DNA of 64,000 nucleotides from Thalia democratica (GCA_965202585.1 OZ241832.1:30194001-30258000), one strand, 5' to 3'; positions 34,081 to 61,844 are shown, counted from the first letter of the stretch. Program-made: numbers and translations. Notes: a model not told the origin generated them from the letters alone.

Positions 34081-36703
34081 CTATATAAATATACCAATAA
34101 GTCACATCAAGTCAAAAAGGTCAAGTGTAATTTTTATGGGGTTTCAATAATTTGACAATGGAAACTTTTTATAATGTGAAACTAAAACCTTTATTCAGCG
34201 GTCCTTTTATATAGTAATGAATTTAAACGATGTATTAAGTTTTTCATATTTTACAGTAACTCATTTGTATGCAGCACACATAATTAGAGCCATAAATAAT
34301 AATTCATCTAAAAATAAGTATAAGTAAAAAAGTTTAAAAAAGTTTCTAACTAGCTTTGCCCGTCTTCAAAATTGTAATGACTTAAAGTAGAGCAAAAAAA
34401 TGTATTTTATCATTCACTAATAGTTTTTTATCTGGGTATCAAGGTGAAAATTTTAAAAAGAGTCAAAAATAATAAATAACAGCAAAATTTATTTTGATGG
34501 AATAAAGATCATTTTAATGGTTTAGTAGACTCCAGATTAGTAGAAAGTAGACTCCAGAATAAATTGAAAAATGGCGTGTATGGAGCTTGAAAAGATAAAC
34601 TATAAAATTAGATGGGACCTGAATAGACTACAAGCTTTTAATTTGCAAGTTTCATACTGAATCTGGATCAAACCTACAACAAGTTGTATCAAATTCTGAG
34701 TGCAAAAAAGGATTTGGATCAAAGGTGGGTTGCGCAGTTTTCCTAGCTTATTAGAAGTAACCAAAAAATAAAAAGATAGCCAAAACACAACAATCACATA
34801 TAGTTATAGAAAACAAAAGAAGCTGTAATTCTGAGAATTTCTGGTGAAAAAAAAATCTTTTGTCCAGTTTTCATATTTTATTTCAACAAGCAGTAGGCTC
34901 CAATAATTCCACTGTGGACAGCAATTTTGCTTAGCTTCTTGCCCAGTGAAAAGACTTTTCAGGATGGTCAAGCCGTGGAAACCCATTTAGTACGCTAAAC
35001 ATTTATTGAGAAATGACAAAAATGGCATAAAACTTACAAACTTTAAAAAACACAATTTGGTACAGACAAGAATTCTGAATGATATTCTACTTAAGGTGGA
35101 CAATTGAACTCATTAAAAGAAATAGATGTATGTTTTCAATGTGGAAAAAAAGTTTTGACAAGGAAGAAAAAATAATAAATTACATCTGGGTATATAATTT
35201 AGTATTTTTTTATAAATGATTTTTTACAATAATTTAATATTCTCTGCTAATAAAAAGAATGCAGACGTTGGTTCCACACTGACTCCTTTTAGTTAAAAAA
35301 TAAACGAAGAATAACATGGGATTCGTCCAACGTGAAGATAAATTTTCAATAGTAGACTAGTACTTCTTTTAAGAAAAAAACTAGATACTGGTGGGGTTGT
35401 TTTGATAATGGATAAGGAATCAAGCAAGGCTATCTTAGTTTGCTGTGTAAAAGATCTAAAAAATAACTTATAACTAACTGGCATGTCTTTTTATTACATA
35501 TATTTAGACAAGTACGTATAATTTAAAGTTAGATAGTTTAGTAACTATTGATTCTGTATGCAGTGTATGTCAAAAAGATTTTGAGCCTCCAAAAACTAAT
35601 TCCACTTGTTTTGACAACAAACAGAAATATTCCATTTAATATCTGAACATGTGGAATATCTGAACATGAGTTTAGTTTATATGTTAATAATAAAAATCAC
35701 TTTTATTCTATAGACTGTGTAAATAACTTAGGATTAATTAATGTTGGGAGTGATGATTTCTGCAAATGTTGTAATTTTTTTTTTCTAATTTAGATGATTG
35801 TTTGTTATGTGAAGGCTGCTTTAAATGGATACATCTTAAATATTCCTAAGCATCAATTAAAAGGTTTGCAGAAATGTGAAAAAATTATTTATCCTTTTTT
35901 TGTAAAACCATAGAACTAAAAATACCTGTATGTTTTAAATGTATTTTGTGTTGAAAAAACATCTAAATATTATTTAACCTGTTTTTTTTGCTTCCAAAAA
36001 TGTCATTTTGAGTGTTCTCCTGAAAATGAAATGAAACTAAGCCTATACAAAAAATGGGATAACAAGTTTTTTTGTGATATATTTAATGAGTCTGTTTTTC
36101 CCTTTCAGAATATTGTTACTTTGCTTATGATTGTTTTTATGAATCTGTTAAGCCTTTTCTGAAATAAACAAACAGATATAGTTAGATTTGTATAGTGTAT
36201 AAATTAGCAAAAAAATTGTATTAGTATTGTTTTTGTGAATATAAGAAGCTTGAATGCAAATATTTATAAAAATGAGGAATTTTTGAGTGTAGTTGAGGGG
36301 TTGCCTGATGTGATTTGTGTGTGTCAAACGTGGCTAAATGAACTGGTACAAGTACAAAATTTCATTTCATAATGTTTTATAAGAGAAATCAATGCTCACC
36401 TTTTTTCTCGTGCAATGAAAATGTTTTCTTTTAACAGAGCAAATGATCTAGTTGGTGACATCTTATTTAAAGATGGAAGAGTCATATTAATATTACAAAT
36501 CATTGACACATTTTATTGTTGTATTCATGTTGAAAAAAACGTTTCCCACAAACTTAAAAGTAATCCTAACTTAATTTTTTTGCAAAGTAGTTTGACTTAA
36601 TACAAAACCATAGAAGAATTAAATGATAAATATGCTTTCATAATAAGCTCTGAATATTATATTAATAGTAATAAAAATATTCAAGATTATGTAAAAAAGA
36701 TGT

Positions 36704-37176
36704 TGTAATGAATACGTGCATTATTCATTATTCAAAGTTGAGCTCAGAGAATATTTTGAGTTTGACACGCTTCATTGCACTAGCCAATGAGAATCATCTG
36801 ACGTGTTTCAAACTAATTCTGATGCAACTAAATATGAGAAAATGACAGTCAGTGTATTTGTAAGCAGTTGGTGAGTTGGTGTGCAGCTGGAACTACCTTG
36901 TATTGATTTGTGATTGTGTATTGTAAGTATTGTTTTGTGTTAAAAGTGAATATTTTAACTGGTATTTAATTGTTTTAATATTTAAGCCAGGTTTATAGTT
37001 AATAGTTTATTCTTTTACAGTTTCTTCTTTACTAAAAGTTTTACTTAATTTTTAGTTTATTGTTTAAAGTCTTTTAAAGAGATTTAAATAGATTGTAATT
37101 TCTAAAAAGTTTGTCATAGTAATTTATAGTTTTGTATATGCTATTATTTCTTGTTGTGTTTTATATAAAAGATTCA
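36704..37176 (+). repeat. 5' LTR, first 473 bp (interrupted)
   Basis: No mismatch found by eye versus 42277-42749. Confidence 0.97.
36784..37170 (+). promoter_or_regulatory. Candidate LTR transcription signals: CCAAT (36784), TCAGT initiator-like (~36849), GTAAGT...TTTTACAG possible intron (36923-37020), TATATAAAA (37162-37170)
   Basis: Motifs are read directly. TATATAAAA could be either a TATA box or a variant poly(A) signal; function is inferred from LTR context only. Confidence 0.4.
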
Positions 37177-39764
37177 GCGTCCTGCGCGGGGCCCGAGGTT
37201 TAGAGATGTGACAGCTCCTATGTTAGAGAAATTGAATGATAGTCTATTTACCTACTATAACTGTTTAACTGGCTTTTTTGATAACAGAGTTCCTAATGAG
37301 CTTGACATTCGCTCTGTGGCTGATTATAGTGCAGATGTGCAAAAGGAAGTTAACAGGAGGGCTAGTTCTCGAATTATTGACCAGTTTAATACAGAGAGAG
37401 CTGCTATGGGGTTGAGACCGCTGACTGTTGAATATCTAGAAATAGCGAATCTCAAGGGTATGGATAATTTCAATCTACCAGGCAAGCAGATAAATGATCT
37501 TGTGGCTGATAACTTTAAGATCAAAGACGTTGAGATCGTTAGAGCCGACGTTTATCGTGACGGAGGTATGAGGAAAACTAGTTTATTTAAGGCTAGCACA
37601 GTTCATGGTAAAGATCCACTCAAAGAGGTGATCGAATTAGGGACAGTGTCTGAATTATTAAAGCAAGATGAGCTAAAGGTGATTCATCATAATGATAACC
37701 CTCTGGTATTCTTGGTTCATAAAGATTATTTAAAAGTGGGTGATGGCCAGGAGGAAGATGATCCTGAGGTTGCTAAGGGTATCTCTGTGACATGGTGGAG
37801 AGAGTTAGCGCCATTTCTGTTAGAGTTAAAGGATATTAAATTGACGAGTGACGAAAAGAAGTTATTTGATTTGTCAGATAAGGTTCCTTTGAGGCCATAT
37901 ACTTATAAGTTGATGAGGGAGAAGATAGGATGGAATCCAAGATTATTATTGCGAGATTATCCTTACGAGAACAGGAAAAGTTATATGTCATTCGGAAAAG
38001 GTATTGATTCTACATCCGATATATGGAGATTGAATTTCTCCGGTGAGTCAGCGAGGTTACCTAATGTAATTCTGTCAGATGTTCCTACAGACGTCGATGT
38101 TATGGATGAGTTTGAGGTCGAGTCTGACGAATCTGGGTTAGCTATTCAGAAAGCATATAGAGACGATAAGAGGCGTGACTCTGATTTAGTTGGTGTACTT
38201 AATGAAGACGAACTCCAATACTTCAAATCTTCCAATTACAAGCTGAATTTAAGAAGAACGTTGATAAAACGTTTACCGGAGGAGCAATCTGTTTATGGAA
38301 TGATGAAGTTAGAGGATAGGTTAAGGCATGTTGCGATAGTAGCTAGAAGGGATTTTTCTAAAGTTGGACCTGTGGTCCCTGTCCTTCTTAAATTGTTGGG
38401 CATCGCCTATCATGAGGTCGGGAAGAAAGGTTGGTTTAATACTGCAATCAGAAGAGCGGGTGATATGTCTATTATAGTTAATGACTGCTTATTGTTTCAT
38501 AAGACGGTTTCAGTCGTTTTAAATGCGATAGAGTTATATATCTGTTTTTCGTCTATTAAAAGGAGTGATTGGGCGGACAGGTTACTATTACTTTCGACTC
38601 TTTTTCTAATGGCTGATCCTATAATTAACACTGCTAAGCTGAAGAAGATCTTGACGGTTGGGAAACAGGGCTGTTTTTTAAGAGGTAGGAAAGCTGATGG
38701 AGTGCTATACCACAAATCTGATATGAAGGATTTTAATGTCAACATAAATATTGAAAGAGTTCTGAAGGGGGATGCGAAGATGCCTATCCTGCTTTATAAC
38801 AGATATCTTGATGAGGAAGTGTTGAAATTGCGAGAATCTTATGTTGCGGGTCCCAAATGGCAGAAAAAATTAACTGACGGGCTGCTAGATCTAATGATGG
38901 ATATTGTCAATGAGGATGGCTTAGCATGCAACATGTGGAAGTACACTTTTTTGACTTCTGTCAATAGACTGTCGGGATTCGTAGCTTCGGATCAGTTGTC
39001 AGCTTATTTAGTTGCTAGTGATAAAGCGTATAGAATAGTTCCTCCAGAGTCCTTTAAAAACAGATTATCTGAGACGTTTTATTCGGAGGCATTAAATGCA
39101 TTCAAGGCCTTTCCCCCTGAGGATACTCCAAAGACGAAGGTGATAACTGATGAAGCGAGAAGAACAGCCTCTGCTTGGGAAGAAAGACAATCTGTAACTG
39201 TTAAGAAAAAAGCTCCTAGGATTCAGAAGGGGAAGTTGATTTTAGTAGACCAGAAAGTAGAGTTGAATACAGGAAAGAAAAATATCGCTCAAATGACCGC
39301 AAATAAGATGTTAAATGTTGATGTGATTGCCAATATAAATCCAAGGATTTCTTCGGGTTCGAGAATTGTTCCAGGTGGAAAGGAAAAAAGAACGGTCTAT
39401 CCAGTTCCCTTCTGGTTTCAGGTGATTGAGTCTATTGGTAATCAAAGCTTTAATAGATATGTGAATCAAAGATTAAAAAGAGATGGTATTAATAGAAGCT
39501 ATGGGCAAGGGAAAGATTCAGCTCTTCCCCACGAAATTATAGGAGCTATTTTTTATGCTACAACACGGAACGTTCATATGATAGGGTTCGATGTGACGGG
39601 ATTTGATATCTCTCAGACTCCTTATAAGCTGTTAATTAAGAGAGCGTTTAGACAGGCAATTAAGGACTATTTCGAGGGTATCCCTAACGTTATAAGTAAT
39701 AAGAAGTTGAAAGATTTGACTCACGTAGAGACCATGTATATGGCATTTCAAGACAATTTTCAAG
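37177..39764 (+). other. Endogenous viral element: 5'- and 3'-truncated reovirus-like (Sedoreoviridae-type) RNA-dependent RNA polymerase coding sequence, 2,588 bp
   Basis: Motif F SSGSRIVPGGKEKRTVYPVP (~39350-39410; compare recalled orbivirus GSRDVPIKATRTIY and rotavirus GRRDVPGRRTRIIF). Motif A IGFDVTGFDISQ (~39581-39616; compare rotavirus YTDVSQWDSSQ). Intronless, GC-richer than flanks, ends before motifs B and C. Confidence 0.85.
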
Positions 39765-41677
39765 CAACATCGGTAGCCCACAATGGCGTCCTTTTAAGTA
39801 GTGAGAACTACCAATCTTTTAACCAACAGTTAAATAAGTCAGAATTTGATAAAAATAATCAACATTCTTATATGGGTAATTACAGTCAGCACCTTATACA
39901 TGAAAATGTGCAGGCCAATAGACATAAGCAGTCTTTAGATTATGAAAGTTCACTAGAGGTGGAAAACTTGGATATAGAGCAGCTTACAAAACTAGTAGCC
40001 CAAGCTAGAATTTTAGAAAAGAAGGCCACCTTAAAAAAGGAATTAAATTCAATTTATAATAGATTATACAAAGGTCAAAACAAATCCCAAAGTAAGATAA
40101 GTTATAGTGGCAGTAGTCCTGTATATAATTCTTCCCACACTGTAGGGGCTACATATAACAGCAATTTGAAACATAGGACCCTAGAAAATTGCAAACTTTT
40201 TTCCCAGATTGAGGCCATAGGGGACCCTGTCATTGAATTAAGATTTTTTGAGGATAGGTGTAGTACTTTTGGCATTACTGATGATACTGAGAAGTTTGAA
40301 ATACTTCAAAGAATCTGGCCACGTCCTGATATAATAGATTTTTTTGAAGCTTATGATGAGGACAGAACATACTTTAATCTTTTCAAATTTTTAGAAGGCA
40401 AAGGCAGTAAATTGCCAAAAATCTTAGGAGCCCATCCAACATGGGAAGGGCCAGTAAAATTCCAAAATTTATACTTATCAGCAAAAAAGTGGGCAAAATC
40501 AAATGAGCAAGATAGAATTAAGTATTTCATGTATGTTCATGCTCCTGATAAATTAAAAAAGAAAATTAAGGAAAATTTTGGGTTAAAGTATGAGGAATTT
40601 TTAAGGCACACAGAGTCCATATGTGAGATAGAAGAACAGAGAATTGTTGAGCATTCCAAAAACATTTCATATGAACCTCACAAACCATACTATGGTAGGT
40701 ACAGAAGTAAGAGTCACAATAATGTAGGTTGGCAGCAAAACCAAAATCTGTTTCATAATAACCACAGTAGTAACCAGCCTAATCAAGAGCACTATAGGCT
40801 GGGAGACAACCAATGTACAAATAATGGCAGAGACCACTATAACAACAAACAAAATGAAGGCTATCTAAACCAAAATTTTTCCAAAGTACATGGAAAAAAT
40901 GATAGAACAGTAAAACACTGTAATTTTGCAACCATAAAAACTCCTTCAGTTTATTCAATCAGAAAGGCACAAAAATTTAAACCTCAAGCTCCAAGAAAAA
41001 TTATAAGATATGGAGTAACAGGCCGAGTTGTGTGGTTTAATGTCAAAAAGGGATATGGATTTATTCATTGTGATAATAAAGACAGTGATGTTTTTGTTCA
41101 TCACACTGAAATTACTAAAAACAACCCTAATAAGTTTTTAAGGTCACTTGCTCAAGGTGAGGCTGTTCAGTTTGATGTTATAATAAGTGAAAGAAATTTA
41201 CCACAGGCTGTGAACGTAACAGGTCCTAATAAAAAACCAGTTAAAGGTTCCAAATATGCCCAAGACAGGTGGCCAAGCTATAACCAGAGGATTAACAGGC
41301 AACAGAGGCCTCAACAAAAATGTTATTTTGTCAATGACTATTATAAAGTAAGAGAAAAACAGCAAAGAGAGCAAAACTGTTATGAGATAAAACACAACCA
41401 CCAATTAACCCACCAGGGTCAAGCAACTGATGATAGACAATTTGCAAAAGAAAGCACCCAAACTAATTGTTCAAATGATTCATTTAAAATTAGCTCAACA
41501 GGCTATCAACCTATTAGCAATGAACAAGAACAGGTTGAACCTCAGAGTGAAATTCTAAAATTAATTTCAGAAAAAGATGAGTTGATTAAAGAAGGTTTGA
41601 AAATTGAAGAAAATGTTGAGAGTATTAAACTTAAAATTGAAAAATTAAGAAATAAAGTTTTTGAAAGGCTAATGTAA
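37220..41677 (+). CDS. Chimeric 1,485-aa ORF: truncated reovirus-like RdRp, Gag-like protein, Y-box cold-shock domain, C-terminal coiled coil
   Basis: A single open frame (open from 37169; first ATG 37220). The junction ...DNFQA|TSVAHNG... falls at 39764/39765, where LTR-derived sequence resumes. Confidence 0.9.
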   Translation: MLEKLNDSLFTYYNCLTGFFDNRVPNELDIRSVADYSADVQKEVNRRASSRIIDQFNTERAAMGLRPLTVEYLEIANLKGMDNFNLPGKQINDLVADNFKIKDVEIVRADVYRDGGMRKTSLFKASTVHGKDPLKEVIELGTVSELLKQDELKVIHHNDNPLVFLVHKDYLKVGDGQEEDDPEVAKGISVTWWRELAPFLLELKDIKLTSDEKKLFDLSDKVPLRPYTYKLMREKIGWNPRLLLRDYPYENRKSYMSFGKGIDSTSDIWRLNFSGESARLPNVILSDVPTDVDVMDEFEVESDESGLAIQKAYRDDKRRDSDLVGVLNEDELQYFKSSNYKLNLRRTLIKRLPEEQSVYGMMKLEDRLRHVAIVARRDFSKVGPVVPVLLKLLGIAYHEVGKKGWFNTAIRRAGDMSIIVNDCLLFHKTVSVVLNAIELYICFSSIKRSDWADRLLLLSTLFLMADPIINTAKLKKILTVGKQGCFLRGRKADGVLYHKSDMKDFNVNINIERVLKGDAKMPILLYNRYLDEEVLKLRESYVAGPKWQKKLTDGLLDLMMDIVNEDGLACNMWKYTFLTSVNRLSGFVASDQLSAYLVASDKAYRIVPPESFKNRLSETFYSEALNAFKAFPPEDTPKTKVITDEARRTASAWEERQSVTVKKKAPRIQKGKLILVDQKVELNTGKKNIAQMTANKMLNVDVIANINPRISSGSRIVPGGKEKRTVYPVPFWFQVIESIGNQSFNRYVNQRLKRDGINRSYGQGKDSALPHEIIGAIFYATTRNVHMIGFDVTGFDISQTPYKLLIKRAFRQAIKDYFEGIPNVISNKKLKDLTHVETMYMAFQDNFQATSVAHNGVLLSSENYQSFNQQLNKSEFDKNNQHSYMGNYSQHLIHENVQANRHKQSLDYESSLEVENLDIEQLTKLVAQARILEKKATLKKELNSIYNRLYKGQNKSQSKISYSGSSPVYNSSHTVGATYNSNLKHRTLENCKLFSQIEAIGDPVIELRFFEDRCSTFGITDDTEKFEILQRIWPRPDIIDFFEAYDEDRTYFNLFKFLEGKGSKLPKILGAHPTWEGPVKFQNLYLSAKKWAKSNEQDRIKYFMYVHAPDKLKKKIKENFGLKYEEFLRHTESICEIEEQRIVEHSKNISYEPHKPYYGRYRSKSHNNVGWQQNQNLFHNNHSSNQPNQEHYRLGDNQCTNNGRDHYNNKQNEGYLNQNFSKVHGKNDRTVKHCNFATIKTPSVYSIRKAQKFKPQAPRKIIRYGVTGRVVWFNVKKGYGFIHCDNKDSDVFVHHTEITKNNPNKFLRSLAQGEAVQFDVIISERNLPQAVNVTGPNKKPVKGSKYAQDRWPSYNQRINRQQRPQQKCYFVNDYYKVREKQQREQNCYEIKHNHQLTHQGQATDDRQFAKESTQTNCSNDSFKISSTGYQPISNEQEQVEPQSEILKLISEKDELIKEGLKIEENVESIKLKIEKLRNKVFERLM
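39765..39782 (+). repeat. Last 18 bp of the 5' LTR (caacatcggtagcccaca)
   Basis: Identical to 42918-42935, the end of the 3' LTR. Confidence 0.95.
39784..39795 (+). promoter_or_regulatory. Candidate tRNA primer-binding site (TGGCGTCCTTTT)
   Basis: TGG one base after the LTR-terminal CA is the canonical PBS position; the cognate tRNA was not identified. Confidence 0.7.
40208..40630 (+). other. Helical Gag/capsid-like core within the ORF
   Basis: ELRFFEDRCSTFGITDDTEKFEILQRIW...RTYFNLFKFL loosely fits the Gypsy-type gag pattern F..FE..F...GI.D...K...L....Y..LK..L; its position just downstream of the PBS supports Gag. Confidence 0.55.
40997..41269 (+). other. Y-box-type cold-shock domain within the ORF
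   Basis: GRVVWFNVKKGYGFI (RNP1), DVFVHHTEI (RNP2), KNNPNKFLRSL..GE.V.FDV and NVTGP...PVKGSKYAQDR closely parallel the recalled YBX1 CSD plus its C-terminal extension. Confidence 0.95.
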
Positions 41678-42250: not shown

Positions 42251-42276
42251 AAAAAAAAAAGGACTACAGAAGATAG
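42251..42276 (+). promoter_or_regulatory. Candidate polypurine tract
   Basis: aaaaaaaaaaggactacagaagatag lies immediately 5' of the 3' LTR. Confidence 0.6.
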
Positions 42277-42935
42277 TGTAATGAATACGTGCATTATTCA
42301 TTATTCAAAGTTGAGCTCAGAGAATATTTTGAGTTTGACACGCTTCATTGCACTAGCCAATGAGAATCATCTGACGTGTTTCAAACTAATTCTGATGCAA
42401 CTAAATATGAGAAAATGACAGTCAGTGTATTTGTAAGCAGTTGGTGAGTTGGTGTGCAGCTGGAACTACCTTGTATTGATTTGTGATTGTGTATTGTAAG
42501 TATTGTTTTGTGTTAAAAGTGAATATTTTAACTGGTATTTAATTGTTTTAATATTTAAGCCAGGTTTATAGTTAATAGTTTATTCTTTTACAGTTTCTTC
42601 TTTACTAAAAGTTTTACTTAATTTTTAGTTTATTGTTTAAAGTCTTTTAAAGAGATTTAAATAGATTGTAATTTCTAAAAAGTTTGTCATAGTAATTTAT
42701 AGTTTTGTATATGCTATTATTTCTTGTTGTGTTTTATATAAAAGATTCATCACTCAAAACTGTCTTGTCTGATTTATATAAAGTAGTATTAAGTAGTGTA
42801 TAGTTTCTATGTCCAACTATAATAATATGAATGAGAAGTATGAACAAAAAGGTCAGGTTGACTATCTGCCCACAGTAAGTCACCCTGACCCAACTGAGGC
42901 TTTAGATGTTGAGTCACCAACATCGGTAGCCCACA
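42277..42935 (+). repeat. Intact 3' LTR, 659 bp
   Basis: TG...CA, followed by TSD ATGT; contains both segments found in the split 5' LTR plus the 168 bp (42750-42917) missing there. Confidence 0.95.
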
Positions 42936-43069
42936 ATGTATTCTAAAATAACTAAAGCAATAGTTGAGCACTAGTAAGAGTGTTTATTGAATTAAGAGCC
43001 TAACTGTAAGTTTTAATCTCAAAAAAAAATATTTGTTTTAAATATTTATGTTTTTGGCTAAAAAGGAGT

Positions 43070-49249: not shown

Positions 49250-50258
49250 TCACACACGAATAACAAAACAGAGCTTCCATAGGAGCTGGAGAAATTTTTT
49301 TGACCAAACACCTTCATCGACGTCATACACTGTTACGGGATACGCACATTCGTGGAACATGAATATCTTGCTTCCGATCGACAAAGCTTTGCTGTACCGA
49401 AGCTGCATGTAGGGCACTCTCAATGCAACGAACCTGCCGTCGTCTAAAACCTCGCACTGGTTCACTCTTCCTTTTAGTAGCAGTAGTTTTCACGATCGTC
49501 AGCAACTTTACCTATTTCTCCCCATTTGTTATTAGCAGGCGAATATTTGCTAACAGACTTTACCAAAGTGAACTCGGTGTCGTGCCCACCGAAAACATAA
49601 ACCTCAAATTGCACACAGGCCACTTTTGAGTCTCTTCGTTCTTCAACATGGAAAACAGAGATTTTGTTTTAAAACTGTTAGCATTAAGCTGCAAGACGCC
49701 CCGCAGAGCTGTCTCGTGTTCTAAACAGTATCCTCCTACGACTAATATGTTAGACGACTCTTGTGTACAATACCTCTTTGTATAATAAACACAAGACCTG
49801 CTCGGTAGCTTTGTACCTTTGTCCAGCAAAAATTCATTTATTACTGAAATGCAGTCGGCTGTTTTAGCTAAAGAACTAGATCCGTTTAAAATATTTCTCA
49901 ACGTGTTTTCTGATAGCAAATTAAGACGAACTTCTAGCAACAGTTGTTTCGCGAATTTACCACGTTGTTTGAGATCGTAGCTCAACCACTCATTTACAGC
50001 ATTAAACACTTCAAGTTCCGATTTAACGCGCAGTTCAGGAGACGAAAGTATTCTTTTCATTGAAGAGTAGTTTAGTTCTAAAAAGTTTTCTTTTTTAACT
50101 ACTACTGCGAAACAGCGCTCTATATAGCTGAGCGCTGTTTCGCGAAAAGTTGTTGGAAAAAGTTCGTAGGCAGCAGCAGCGTTATTAACATCCAGCCTCT
50201 TTTTAACAATTTTACATACTTTACTAATTTTGGTTTCATCTAAAGAAAGTTTTGTCAA
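49250..50258 (-). pseudogene. Intronless BACK-Kelch (KLHL-like) pseudogene; BTB domain absent
   Basis: BACK domain FLELNYSSMKRILSSPELRVKSELEVFNAVNEWL...VRLNLL. After a frameshift near 49650 the Kelch repeat EVYVFGGHD...SVSKYSPANNKW follows, then a stop and another frame with KIFMF...VTVYDVDEGVW. Confidence 0.85.
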
Positions 50259-51519
50259 CTTGATAGCTGTAATTGTCTAAGAGTCATCTAAAGCTAAAAA
50301 TACTGTTTGATTAATTAGTTTAATGTACTTTAAATTGAAAAAACATTGTCAAAAGGTATTGTTTTTAGTATTTAAGTGATAATGTTTTAAATAAAAAATT
50401 TTTTTTTTTTAGATTTAGATATAATTAAAAAGTTATACAACTATCCCATTGAAAAACAAGATTTTTTTGTTTTGCGATGGAACTTTAAGTGTACAGTTGA
50501 AAAAGTAAGATTTGTTTTATTTCAATATATTTTAGAGAATTCATAACTCAATTTTTATGCAAGATATTAATAACACAAACCTACCTTGTTTAGCAAGATC
50601 TTTATATATATTTCGTGTCTTCTTGCTAGAAGATTTCAATAATATTTTCTTGCACATGTTCACATAATCAAAACTTTTATAGTTATTACGAATTGCATTG
50701 AAACTGAGTTTATTCTTATGGTAGTTTTCTAGTTTCGTCTTTTTCCAACTAATTCTGTCAGGAAGAATTGCTTTTGGCGAGAACTTGTTTGAATTTCTTT
50801 CCATGAGTTAATTAAGCTGTAAAAAGTTTAAAAATAGTTTAGAGTTAAATTTATTCATGTTTGTAGCTTTTAGTAAAATAATGTATTAATAAGTGGGTAG
50901 GTACCAAAAAATGCACGAAGTGACATTTTTGCATGAAGAGTAGCTTTTGCACGAAGACACTTTTGCACGAGAAGTCACTTTTGCACGGGTTGAAATTTTT
51001 TTAAAATTTATTTTTCTTTTTTCTCACTATCACTGTTACCCTTACCCGGTAATTTTTTTTTCTATTTCTTATTATTACTATTTTTTTAATCACTGTTACC
51101 TCTATCCCTTACGCTTTGTCGATTTTTTAAATCTATTGTAAATATGTAAGGTATGAATGTTGGTAAAGTTGATTTATTGGTACTACTCACCATAACTAAA
51201 CCCTACCTTATTAAACAGCTATCATTATTATACTAGATGCTACTTTGTATAAGTTAGACAAGACATTTTGAACAATGTAGCTATTATAAAAATAAAACAA
51301 AACACTATACAAAATCTCTAGTTAAAAAATATAAAATAAAAAAAATTTTTAGTACAAAAAATAAAATATAAGTAATTTTATGTTAAGTATTTAAAAATTT
51401 GCCGCTTTTAAAGTTTATGTGTTTTGTAGGGCATATTTTTTATGAACATTACCTATTTGTGCATGAAACTTTGCGTATTTTTTGGTGAATCAGCTTTGAC
51501 AGTTGTATTATGAGTACAT

Positions 51520-61232: not shown

Positions 61233-61844
61233 AAAACTATCCATCATAACCATCTCAAAGAGTGTCACATCACCCAGGACCTGGTCGCACAGAGGCACAA
61301 GGCGGTGATGGAGAAGCTTTGGGATAGATACGACCGAATCGAGAGAATGTATTGGAGAGGCGAGTCCGGAGAATACGGTGCCGACTTCTACCTGCAGGAC
61401 CCACAGAGGTTCCGAAAGACCGTGAGCCTTGCCATTATGGATTCCGGAGTGAACCTATGCAAGGTCAGAGACCGCTTCTACGGGAAAGAGGCGACGGTGT
61501 ACGCGCATTCCAACGGTGCGGAGGAAGTGGTCTTCCTAGTGATGGATGATCGAGGGGCCTGGGCGAGAGGCAGCCGGACCGATTTGAGAAGAATTGGTTT
61601 GGAGAAAACGGTTCTTGAAGCTCTGACAGTTGAGGTTTTGGCATGGACCGCCAAGACAGTTGCGTATTGGAATCGCAACTCGCGAACCCACAGGATACTG
61701 GCCGATAGTTTAAGTCTGAATGCAGAAACTGAAATAGAAGTGTTGATGGCAGCAATCACATGGTTGAATTCAGGTAATGGAAGAGAATTTTTCGAAGAAC
61801 TTTTTTTATATATTCGATTTTCCTTTTTGCACGGAAAACATTAG
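61233..61844 (+). CDS. GC-rich ORF (open from 61233, ATG 61308); tentative N-terminal part of a divergent CAF1/DEDD exonuclease-like protein
   Basis: TWLNSGNGREF has the spacing of the recalled CAF1 KWLSFHSGYDF (ExoII); AIMDSG could be a degenerate ExoI; the composition contrasts sharply with the flanks. Confidence 0.35.
   Translation, partial: KTIHHNHLKECHITQDLVAQRHKAVMEKLWDRYDRIERMYWRGESGEYGADFYLQDPQRFRKTVSLAIMDSGVNLCKVRDRFYGKEATVYAHSNGAEEVVFLVMDDRGAWARGSRTDLRRIGLEKTVLEALTVEVLAWTAKTVAYWNRNSRTHRILADSLSLNAETEIEVLMAAITWLNSGNGREFFEELFLYIRFSFLHGKH

Follow-up and report, generated by a model that had tools for sequence, protein, structure and literature searches.

A sedoreovirid-like polymerase fragment in the 5' LTR of a young Ty3/gypsy element of Thalia democratica, probably captured by template switching

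How part of the polymerase gene of an RNA virus came to lie, in open frame, in a chromosome of Thalia democratica is the question raised by a stretch of 64,000 nucleotides (GCA_965202585.1, OZ241832.1:30194001-30258000), here called the window, in which positions are counted from the first letter. The initial annotation had described positions 37177-39764 as the stand-alone fossil of an undescribed Sedoreoviridae-like virus whose polymerase is cut off just after motif A. Instead, the 5' LTR of an intact retrotransposon has received a very young insert there, which is joined to the gag and cold-shock domain (CSD) of that element. The viral part and the frame that contains it are the following.

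37177..39764, plus strand: insert from reovirus VP1 (RNA-dependent RNA polymerase, RdRp), matching 7xr3_Z at E 7.7e-42
39356..39406, plus strand: motif F (GSRIVPGGKEKRTVYPV), aligning with the crabreovirus motif
39590..39607, plus strand: motif A (DVTGFD), aligning with the motif-A aspartate of mud crab reovirus
37220..41677, plus strand: fusion ORF RdRp-gag-CSD, 1485 aa from the first in-frame ATG, with the right junction in frame with the ORF of the element

The insert encodes most of the N-terminal domain, the first part of the fingers with motif F and the first part of the palm with motif A. As had been noticed at first, both motifs are present (from 39356 and 39590), neither a GDD nor a motif-B pattern occurs anywhere in the window ORF, and the frame is open to the left junction, reaching back to 37169. 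The viral start was also correctly taken to be missing, since a longer copy on another contig (C4, see below) has an ATG 50 codons upstream of residue 1 of the window. The statement that the sequence stops about 50 residues past motif A holds for the viral homology, which ends after 54 residues, but not for the frame, which continues past 39764 to 41677; from stop to stop the ORF is 1502 aa long and some 635 element-derived codons follow the insert in frame. Mud crab reovirus VP1 is divided into an N-domain (1-617), a polymerase (618-1090) and a bracelet (1091-1422), and by these domain limits the insert lacks the motif-C aspartates (PMC10155992). As a copy without motifs B and C it should be a catalytically dead fragment, as was first proposed.

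The affinity of the insert is indicated by several searches. With the first 865 residues of the frame, phmmer against the PDB returned mud crab reovirus VP1 (7xr3_Z; query 286-833 aligned to chain 302-847) as the sole match at E<=10, and the GC content is 39% compared to 28% in the window, so that a chance match can be set aside. A profile search added Banna virus VP1 (8k43_Z; PMC10937716) at E 1e-20 to 4e-22 and nothing else, and Pfam gave no match on the insert. A first AlphaFold model (pLDDT 33.9) was too poor for use; a second, still weak model (pLDDT 48.7) led Foldseek in ranks 1-11 to the polymerases of mud crab reovirus, Banna virus, rotavirus and bluetongue virus (BTV), and VIA-align placed 7xr3_Z first (Z 11.0, rmsd 13.4, 382 aligned) followed by unrelated helical matches. 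A toti- or partitivirus origin was rejected, no such match being found among the PDB, profile and structure rows listed. Judged from these comparisons, the insert is a Sedoreoviridae-like VP1, in agreement with the family first suggested. Its nearest relatives are not the orbi-, rota- or phytoreoviruses whose form of motif F was first compared but the crabreoviruses, a genus ratified in 2025 (PMC12451637; for background see PMC4748042), and then Banna virus.

A search of 1.84 billion representatives gave five matches, and a further search from the best of them gave six crab-type sequences, including the Scylla and Eriocheir reoviruses. The lineage is only 25-27% identical to the crab-type sequences, the five closest of which are 80-86% identical to each other; this bears out the idea of an undescribed lineage, which is probably new at the genus level. 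An unrooted tree of 10 rows, saturated, with long branches and built without an outgroup or the window and P0006 sequences, places it outside the crab-type group, for which the support is 98/96. The protein resembles Crabreovirus VP1 (mud crab reovirus 7XR3, Scylla, Eriocheir) in domain order and in the forms of motifs F, A, B and C, and differs in that the first ~270 residues are unalignable and the host is a chordate; the sequence would appear to work like Crabreovirus VP1 but not to be a member of that genus. No close exogenous relative was found in the word-index search (nothing scored among 8000 candidates with the insert as query), among the 1.84 billion representatives or in a metagenome scan with the C4 frame. 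Tunicate metatranscriptomes contain Reovirales contigs that could include this lineage (10.1101/2024.12.15.628590). What the locus preserves is a sedoreovirid lineage, probably of genus rank, with a tie to the germline of a chordate invertebrate, and this tie argues against a dietary origin. In keeping with a tunicate host, the genome has 59 exon-sized matches to connexins, a family restricted to tunicates and vertebrates, a GC content of 28%, an occurrence in marine datasets and an 18S sequence of tunicate-like appearance; the best marker, cellulose synthase, gave no match, nor did GH6, and a search for an arthropod cuticle family was also empty but had an uninformative control. As a separate observation, ENA contigs of 359-397 kb (P0004, P0005/P0009 and P0006) contain crabreovirus-like RdRp pieces, of which P0004 groups with the lineage in the tree; they are probably endogenous viral elements (EVEs) in other genomes.

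The surroundings of the insert have the structure of a complete LTR element.

36700..36703, unstranded: left target-site duplication (TSD) ATGT, the same 4-mer as at 42936-42939
36704..37176, plus strand: left part of the 5' LTR (LTR nt 1-473), identical to nt 1-473 of the 3' LTR
37167..37176, plus strand: left junction microhomology of 10 nt common to LTR and virus, the same 10 nt standing in the viral context of the C4 copy
39765..39770, plus strand: right junction microhomology of 6 nt, from which the C4 and C6 copies run on into viral sequence
39765..39782, plus strand: last 18 nt of the 5' LTR, ending in CA, without difference from the corresponding end of the 3' LTR
39783..39791, plus strand: PBS-like site, with TGG right after the LTR, conserved family-wide behind the 5' LTR
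40163..40699, plus strand: gag-like capsid core, homologous to the ORF that precedes PR-RT-RH-IN in two relatives (L040, L041)
41018..41224, plus strand: cold-shock domain of Y-box type, Pfam CSD E 6.1e-20
42251..42276, plus strand: polypurine tract, a purine-rich run immediately before the 3' LTR
42277..42935, plus strand: intact 3' LTR of 659 bp, TG...CA, containing the element's own ATG at 42809
42936..42939, unstranded: right target-site duplication ATGT, matching the left copy

The element is a young, intact, non-autonomous derivative of Ty3/gypsy that encodes gag and a CSD in the place where pol would be; it is non-autonomous because it has gag-CSD only and no pol of its own. TG...CA LTRs, TSD, PBS-like site and polypurine tract are all present (no tRNA gene was found in the window), and the pol order PR-RT-RNase H-IN of Ty3/gypsy is found in two relatives: L040, with an intact PR-RT-RH-IN of 1181 aa, and L041, whose LTRs, 96.5% like those of the window, enclose broken frames for gag, RT, RNase H and integrase. 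For the gag-like core an atlas search also gave a lead, and a lead only, to retrotransposon gag (0.83-0.84). The CSD is nearer to animal YBX than to Lin28 or bacterial Csp, its best PDB matches being YBX2/YBX1 at E 2e-26 versus 2e-12 for bacterial Csp. The limits of the LTR were set by comparing 25 family loci, in which a TG start, a CA end and the element's own ATG are followed by TGG; this comparison rules out a shorter LTR ending at 37176 with the virus replacing the PBS. The insert replaces 168 bp of the 5' LTR, including the element's own ATG, and the 491 remaining bases show no difference between the two LTRs (95% upper bound 0.6%). In the family as a whole, a 4-bp TSD is found in 26 of 30 scorable copies from 59 screened loci (the top scorers, a few of them overlapping), and 18 of 19 scored LTR pairs diverge by 0-0.39%, which indicates recent activity; the DNA search scored the best 40 of 2042 candidates, so the family is larger than the sample. 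The locus reveals in this way an active gypsy subfamily with a Y-box domain in place of pol. The CpG observed/expected ratio is 0.77 in the insert versus 0.09 in the element ORF, which marks the insert as a recent passenger.

Some further features of the family were observed. The gag-CSD ORF (window 39771-41674 and family copies) is very CpG-poor, with 5 CpG, and the pol regions of the relatives are not (o/e 0.65 and 0.91); an open frame of ~680-710 aa is retained in many copies. A second related gypsy family (L039, G000:C5:45430001-45440000) has a 418-aa gag, a CSD ORF in the place of pol and an inverted second copy.

At both ends of the insert virus and LTR share sequence, 10 nt on the left and 6 nt on the right, which blurs the exact junctions and gives a maximal viral span of 37167-39770. 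Per random junction the chance of a 10-nt match is 3e-5 and that of a 6-nt match 2e-3; 6-mers shared by LTR and virus occur at 621 positions and are no commoner than in shuffles. In the standard scheme of reverse transcription, the 5' LTR is completed last, by synthesis of the minus strand on a plus-sense template. It is likely that the capture took place at this stage, by copy-choice template switching onto plus-sense polymerase RNA during completion of the 5' LTR, whichever donor provided that RNA. The non-autonomous element would depend for RT and integrase on a gag-pol element whose LTR is the same, and plus-sense RNA encoding reovirus VP1 would have been packaged together with the element RNA. 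In the final step of reverse transcription the 5' LTR is built by the minus strand with plus strong-stop DNA as template; after 18 nt of it the RT may have switched at the 6-nt match to polymerase RNA, copied 2.6 kb of this and gone back at the 10-nt match. Because both LTR termini were intact, normal insertion by integrase with a 4-bp TSD could follow, and the product would be a dead-end chimera with a frame that is open mainly because it is young. A switch during 5' LTR completion predicts a same-sense insert in the 5' LTR only, and this is seen in two of two events.

The second of these events was found among the other copies in the genome, where a search gave seven matches that represent four loci on three chromosome-scale contigs: the window, a twin on the same contig (C8), one locus on C6 and one on C4. 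At C6:41288927 (41.29 Mb), 639 nt of the VP1 gene replace nt 1-134 (U3) of the 5' LTR of another family member. The viral piece extends 67 nt beyond the junction of the window and therefore does not derive from the window chimera. Where the viral piece adjoins the TSD, 5 nt are common to it and the LTR terminus (P 7e-3); the right junction has an imperfect match of 9/11, and an AAGT TSD encloses everything, including a fold-back 3' LTR. That the viral end adjoins the TSD and the TSD encloses the whole indicates that viral DNA already belonged to the end of the cDNA when integration took place. Concerning the 3' LTR of this element (L037:8698-8947 = C6:41292698-41292947), it stops at nt 137 and folds back over nt 120-1, a point that nearly equals the viral join in its 5' LTR (135).

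Microhomology marks template switching in DNA repair too, and the window junctions alone would fit a later insertion. An intact element may have integrated first and later repair, by microhomology-mediated template switching or ectopic conversion, may have copied viral cDNA or C4-type DNA into its 5' LTR; this would explain that a single LTR is affected with microhomology at both ends, and a DNA donor (C4) exists in the genome. However, two independent events would have hit the same LTR of one family in the same sense, the C6 viral sequence forming the integrated end next to the TSD fits poorly, and the window differs from the assembled C4 copy by 56 substitutions and 3 indels, so that this allele was not the template. 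Later repair is accordingly held to be an improbable account of the locus, and copy-choice switching during reverse transcription is preferred, with the reservation that independent captures number only two among the 59 loci screened (top scorers, some overlapping).

The twin on C8 (30.16 Mb) has the same TSD, both junctions and the same flanks as the window over ~23 kb (window ~29385-52829 against G000:C8:30153426-30190551, 98.4-99.6% identity). Set against the window, it has 7 substitutions and an internal duplication, has lost 33 nt and contains a stop in gag, and the flanks of the two copies differ by 0.39-0.86%. Judged on this resemblance, the twin reads as a DNA duplicate (tandem) or an uncollapsed allele. 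Further retrotransposition of the chimera was ruled out, given the shared flanks and TSD of the twin, and no copy has virus in both LTRs.

That the junctions themselves are an assembly chimera or contamination seems extremely improbable. Among the contig pieces listed from four sequencing runs none bridges either window junction, and the twin may be an uncollapsed allele, both of which would be compatible with an artefact; nevertheless, a DNA assembly should not contain an RNA virus, the four loci lie on three chromosome-scale contigs with TSDs and distinct junctions, the twin shares both junctions yet has mutations of its own, and run X1 contains variants of the C4 type, the C4 deletions among them, as well as of the window type. 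From runs X4 and X7 came short pieces of low depth and nothing more.

In several other family copies (L074, L090, L068 and L019/L093) only the final 10-25 nt of the 5' LTR remain in front of the PBS, the rest having been deleted or replaced; these loss points, near the right junction of the window, possibly mark a hotspot of switching. Foreign stretches of 350-400 nt are also present in family copies (L083:2889-3237, L088:3782-4175 and L091:3765-4165); the one in L083 is GC-richer, sits after the PBS and has no match in Rfam.

Template switching requires an RNA donor, and the locus on C4 bears on what it was. At C4:297725-294454 lies the longest copy, which measures 3272 nt, is located outside any such element and is 97.4% identical to the window. 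In it motif A is followed by motif B (GNTSG..T..N) and motif C (FGDD), its end falls near position 1055 of mud crab VP1, and its only Pfam match is RdRP_1 (E 0.011); within the span shared with the window it has two frameshifting deletions and one in-frame deletion. From its position the upstream ATG may be the viral start; the 50-aa N-terminal stretch that it opens does not significantly match a crabreovirus-like N-terminus. Searches of the genome at 25% identity found nothing downstream of about residue 1045 in a full-length relative. Of the 56 differences between window and C4, 30 are synonymous versus 17.9 expected under the same spectrum (p 0.0008; pN/pS 0.24) in a test aware of spectrum and CpG; an equal-rates dN/dS test overstated the significance. 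Two readings are open to choice here: capture of two strains of the virus, or host selection on the C4-type locus with an allele of it as the donor.

The first possibility corresponds to viral mRNA as donor, to which we would give close to an even chance; some other donor appears unlikely. According to the second, which is credible although clearly short of even, the host itself supplied the donor RNA by transcribing an older endogenous C4-type copy, kept open by purifying selection, with its own ATG, the N-domain and the whole catalytic core but without the C-terminal bracelet; the window and C6 inserts would then be retrocopies and the mechanism of capture would be unchanged. Both captures nest within the 3272-nt C4 span, both independent captures of a foreign ORF among the 59 loci are of VP1, and the genome has nothing past residue ~1045, although at 25% identity the bracelet region and all the other segments may escape a search. 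The 1-kb duplication at the 3' junction of the C4 copy has diverged by 4.1% plus 9 indels, comparable to the synonymous divergence between window and C4 (5.4%) and far above that of the window LTRs (<0.6%), a time in which an RNA virus should have drifted by more than 2%; the duplication may, however, predate the insertion. The synonymous excess appears on both lineages (15/23, p 0.0016; 10/18, p 0.03), but would be equally normal for two viral strains, and 5.4% is high for alleles when the C8 flanks differ by only 0.39-0.86%. In run X3, labelled as another organism, contigs cross both junction sites into non-LTR sequence, one of them running 533 nt past the right site as in C4, ungapped in the four pieces listed; this contig may nonetheless be a collapsed mixture, and the comparison covers 24 of the X3 differences. 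Finally, the assembled C4 copy is itself frameshifted twice. A stronger version, in which the C4-type locus is a domesticated, bracelet-less reovirus polymerase under purifying selection, transcribed in the germline and repeatedly packaged and retro-copied by the CSD gypsy element, is considered unlikely; if true, a chordate would have co-opted the RdRp of a dsRNA virus, and the CSD would serve as a module for RNA capture.

The flanks of the C4 copy form a direct repeat of ~1 kb that is locally unique (G000:C4:293476-294453 and 298662-299672; 4.1% substitutions, 9 indels), one unit of which begins precisely where the long viral copy ends on its 3' side. These repeats were considered as LTRs of another family and rejected, only two full-length copies having been found.

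Selection could also have acted on the window product itself, if the 1485-aa RdRp-gag-CSD fusion or its small RNAs were expressed and maintained as an antiviral factor, as a decoy made of dead polymerase or a source of piRNAs. The frame is open across both junctions with an in-frame ATG at 37220, the U3 part of the LTR is intact upstream, and EVE loci of mosquitoes are described as yielding piRNAs. On the other hand, a junction falls in frame by chance one time in three, and at so young a locus an open frame does not imply selection. Two short out-of-frame ATGs lie upstream of 37220, and in the C8 twin gag has already acquired a stop, besides the loss of 33 nt and the internal duplication in that copy. 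Selection on the fusion is thus regarded as very unlikely.

LTR-mediated capture of viral RNA, rare reovirus EVEs and the gain of ORFs by LTR elements are all already known. In work by Geuking from 2009, LCMV-IAP recombinants reportedly joined RNA-virus sequence in the same sense to an LTR element. For mosquito EVEs, copy-choice capture of viral RNA by LTR elements has been proposed as a model (10.1101/127498; PMC5497376). The present locus is similar to the Aedes and LCMV-IAP cases in the same-sense join of RNA-virus sequence to a Ty3/gypsy element and in the copy-choice model; unlike them, it preserves the whole product with both LTR ends, the TSD and both switch points, its insert lies inside the 5' LTR and in frame with gag, a second independent event is present, and the host is not an arthropod. 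LTR-element copy-choice capture has so far been mostly inferred from strand bias and proximity, and the two independent products described here, which keep termini, TSDs and switch points, would place the event at completion of the 5' LTR, making the locus a rare clean record of RNA-virus sequence entering an animal genome. Among reoviruses, segment 5 of Liao ning virus is reported in Aedes aegypti, with a mechanism left unclear in that account (PMC2987831), and VP1/VP5 integrations are described as rare (PMC5497376). As in these insects, a segment of a dsRNA reovirus is found in an animal genome; in contrast to at most one integration per species in the insect accounts cited, there are four loci here and a readable route. 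LTR elements with captured extra ORFs are known from bdelloid rotifers (PMC5408684). The present element resembles such ORF-capturing and non-autonomous gag-only elements in keeping LTRs and gag, depending on pol in trans and gaining a foreign ORF, and differs from them in that a Y-box-type CSD replaces pol, in two related families (including L039). A literature search, with most subscription journals outside its scope, found no report of an endogenous reovirus element in tunicates and no paper on a virus-in-5'-LTR arrangement; among the papers listed, none had gypsy elements carrying a Y-box CSD for pol as its topic either. A probably new sedoreovirid lineage is thus preserved here as an unusually complete, probable template-switch product in an active CSD-bearing gypsy element.

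Other features lie in the neighbourhood. The first half of the window (1-32000) is dense in interspersed repeats and ~122-bp tandem repeats, and host frames with a BACK domain (kelch-like) are located at 49560-50276 (minus strand) and 61233-61844 (plus strand). About 10 kb upstream of the C8 twin, a GC-richer island (L042:2169-3330 = G000:C8:30150169-30151330) contains two abutting frames, one of 177 aa and one of 274 aa that extends into a common repeat, with a weak Pfam match to Tenui_N (E 0.0028, below the cut-off). Relatives of the island are found at C5:14850571 (56%) and at C6:67117035 and 67130333 (71-75%), and together these sequences are probably EVEs of phenuivirus-like nucleocapsid genes.
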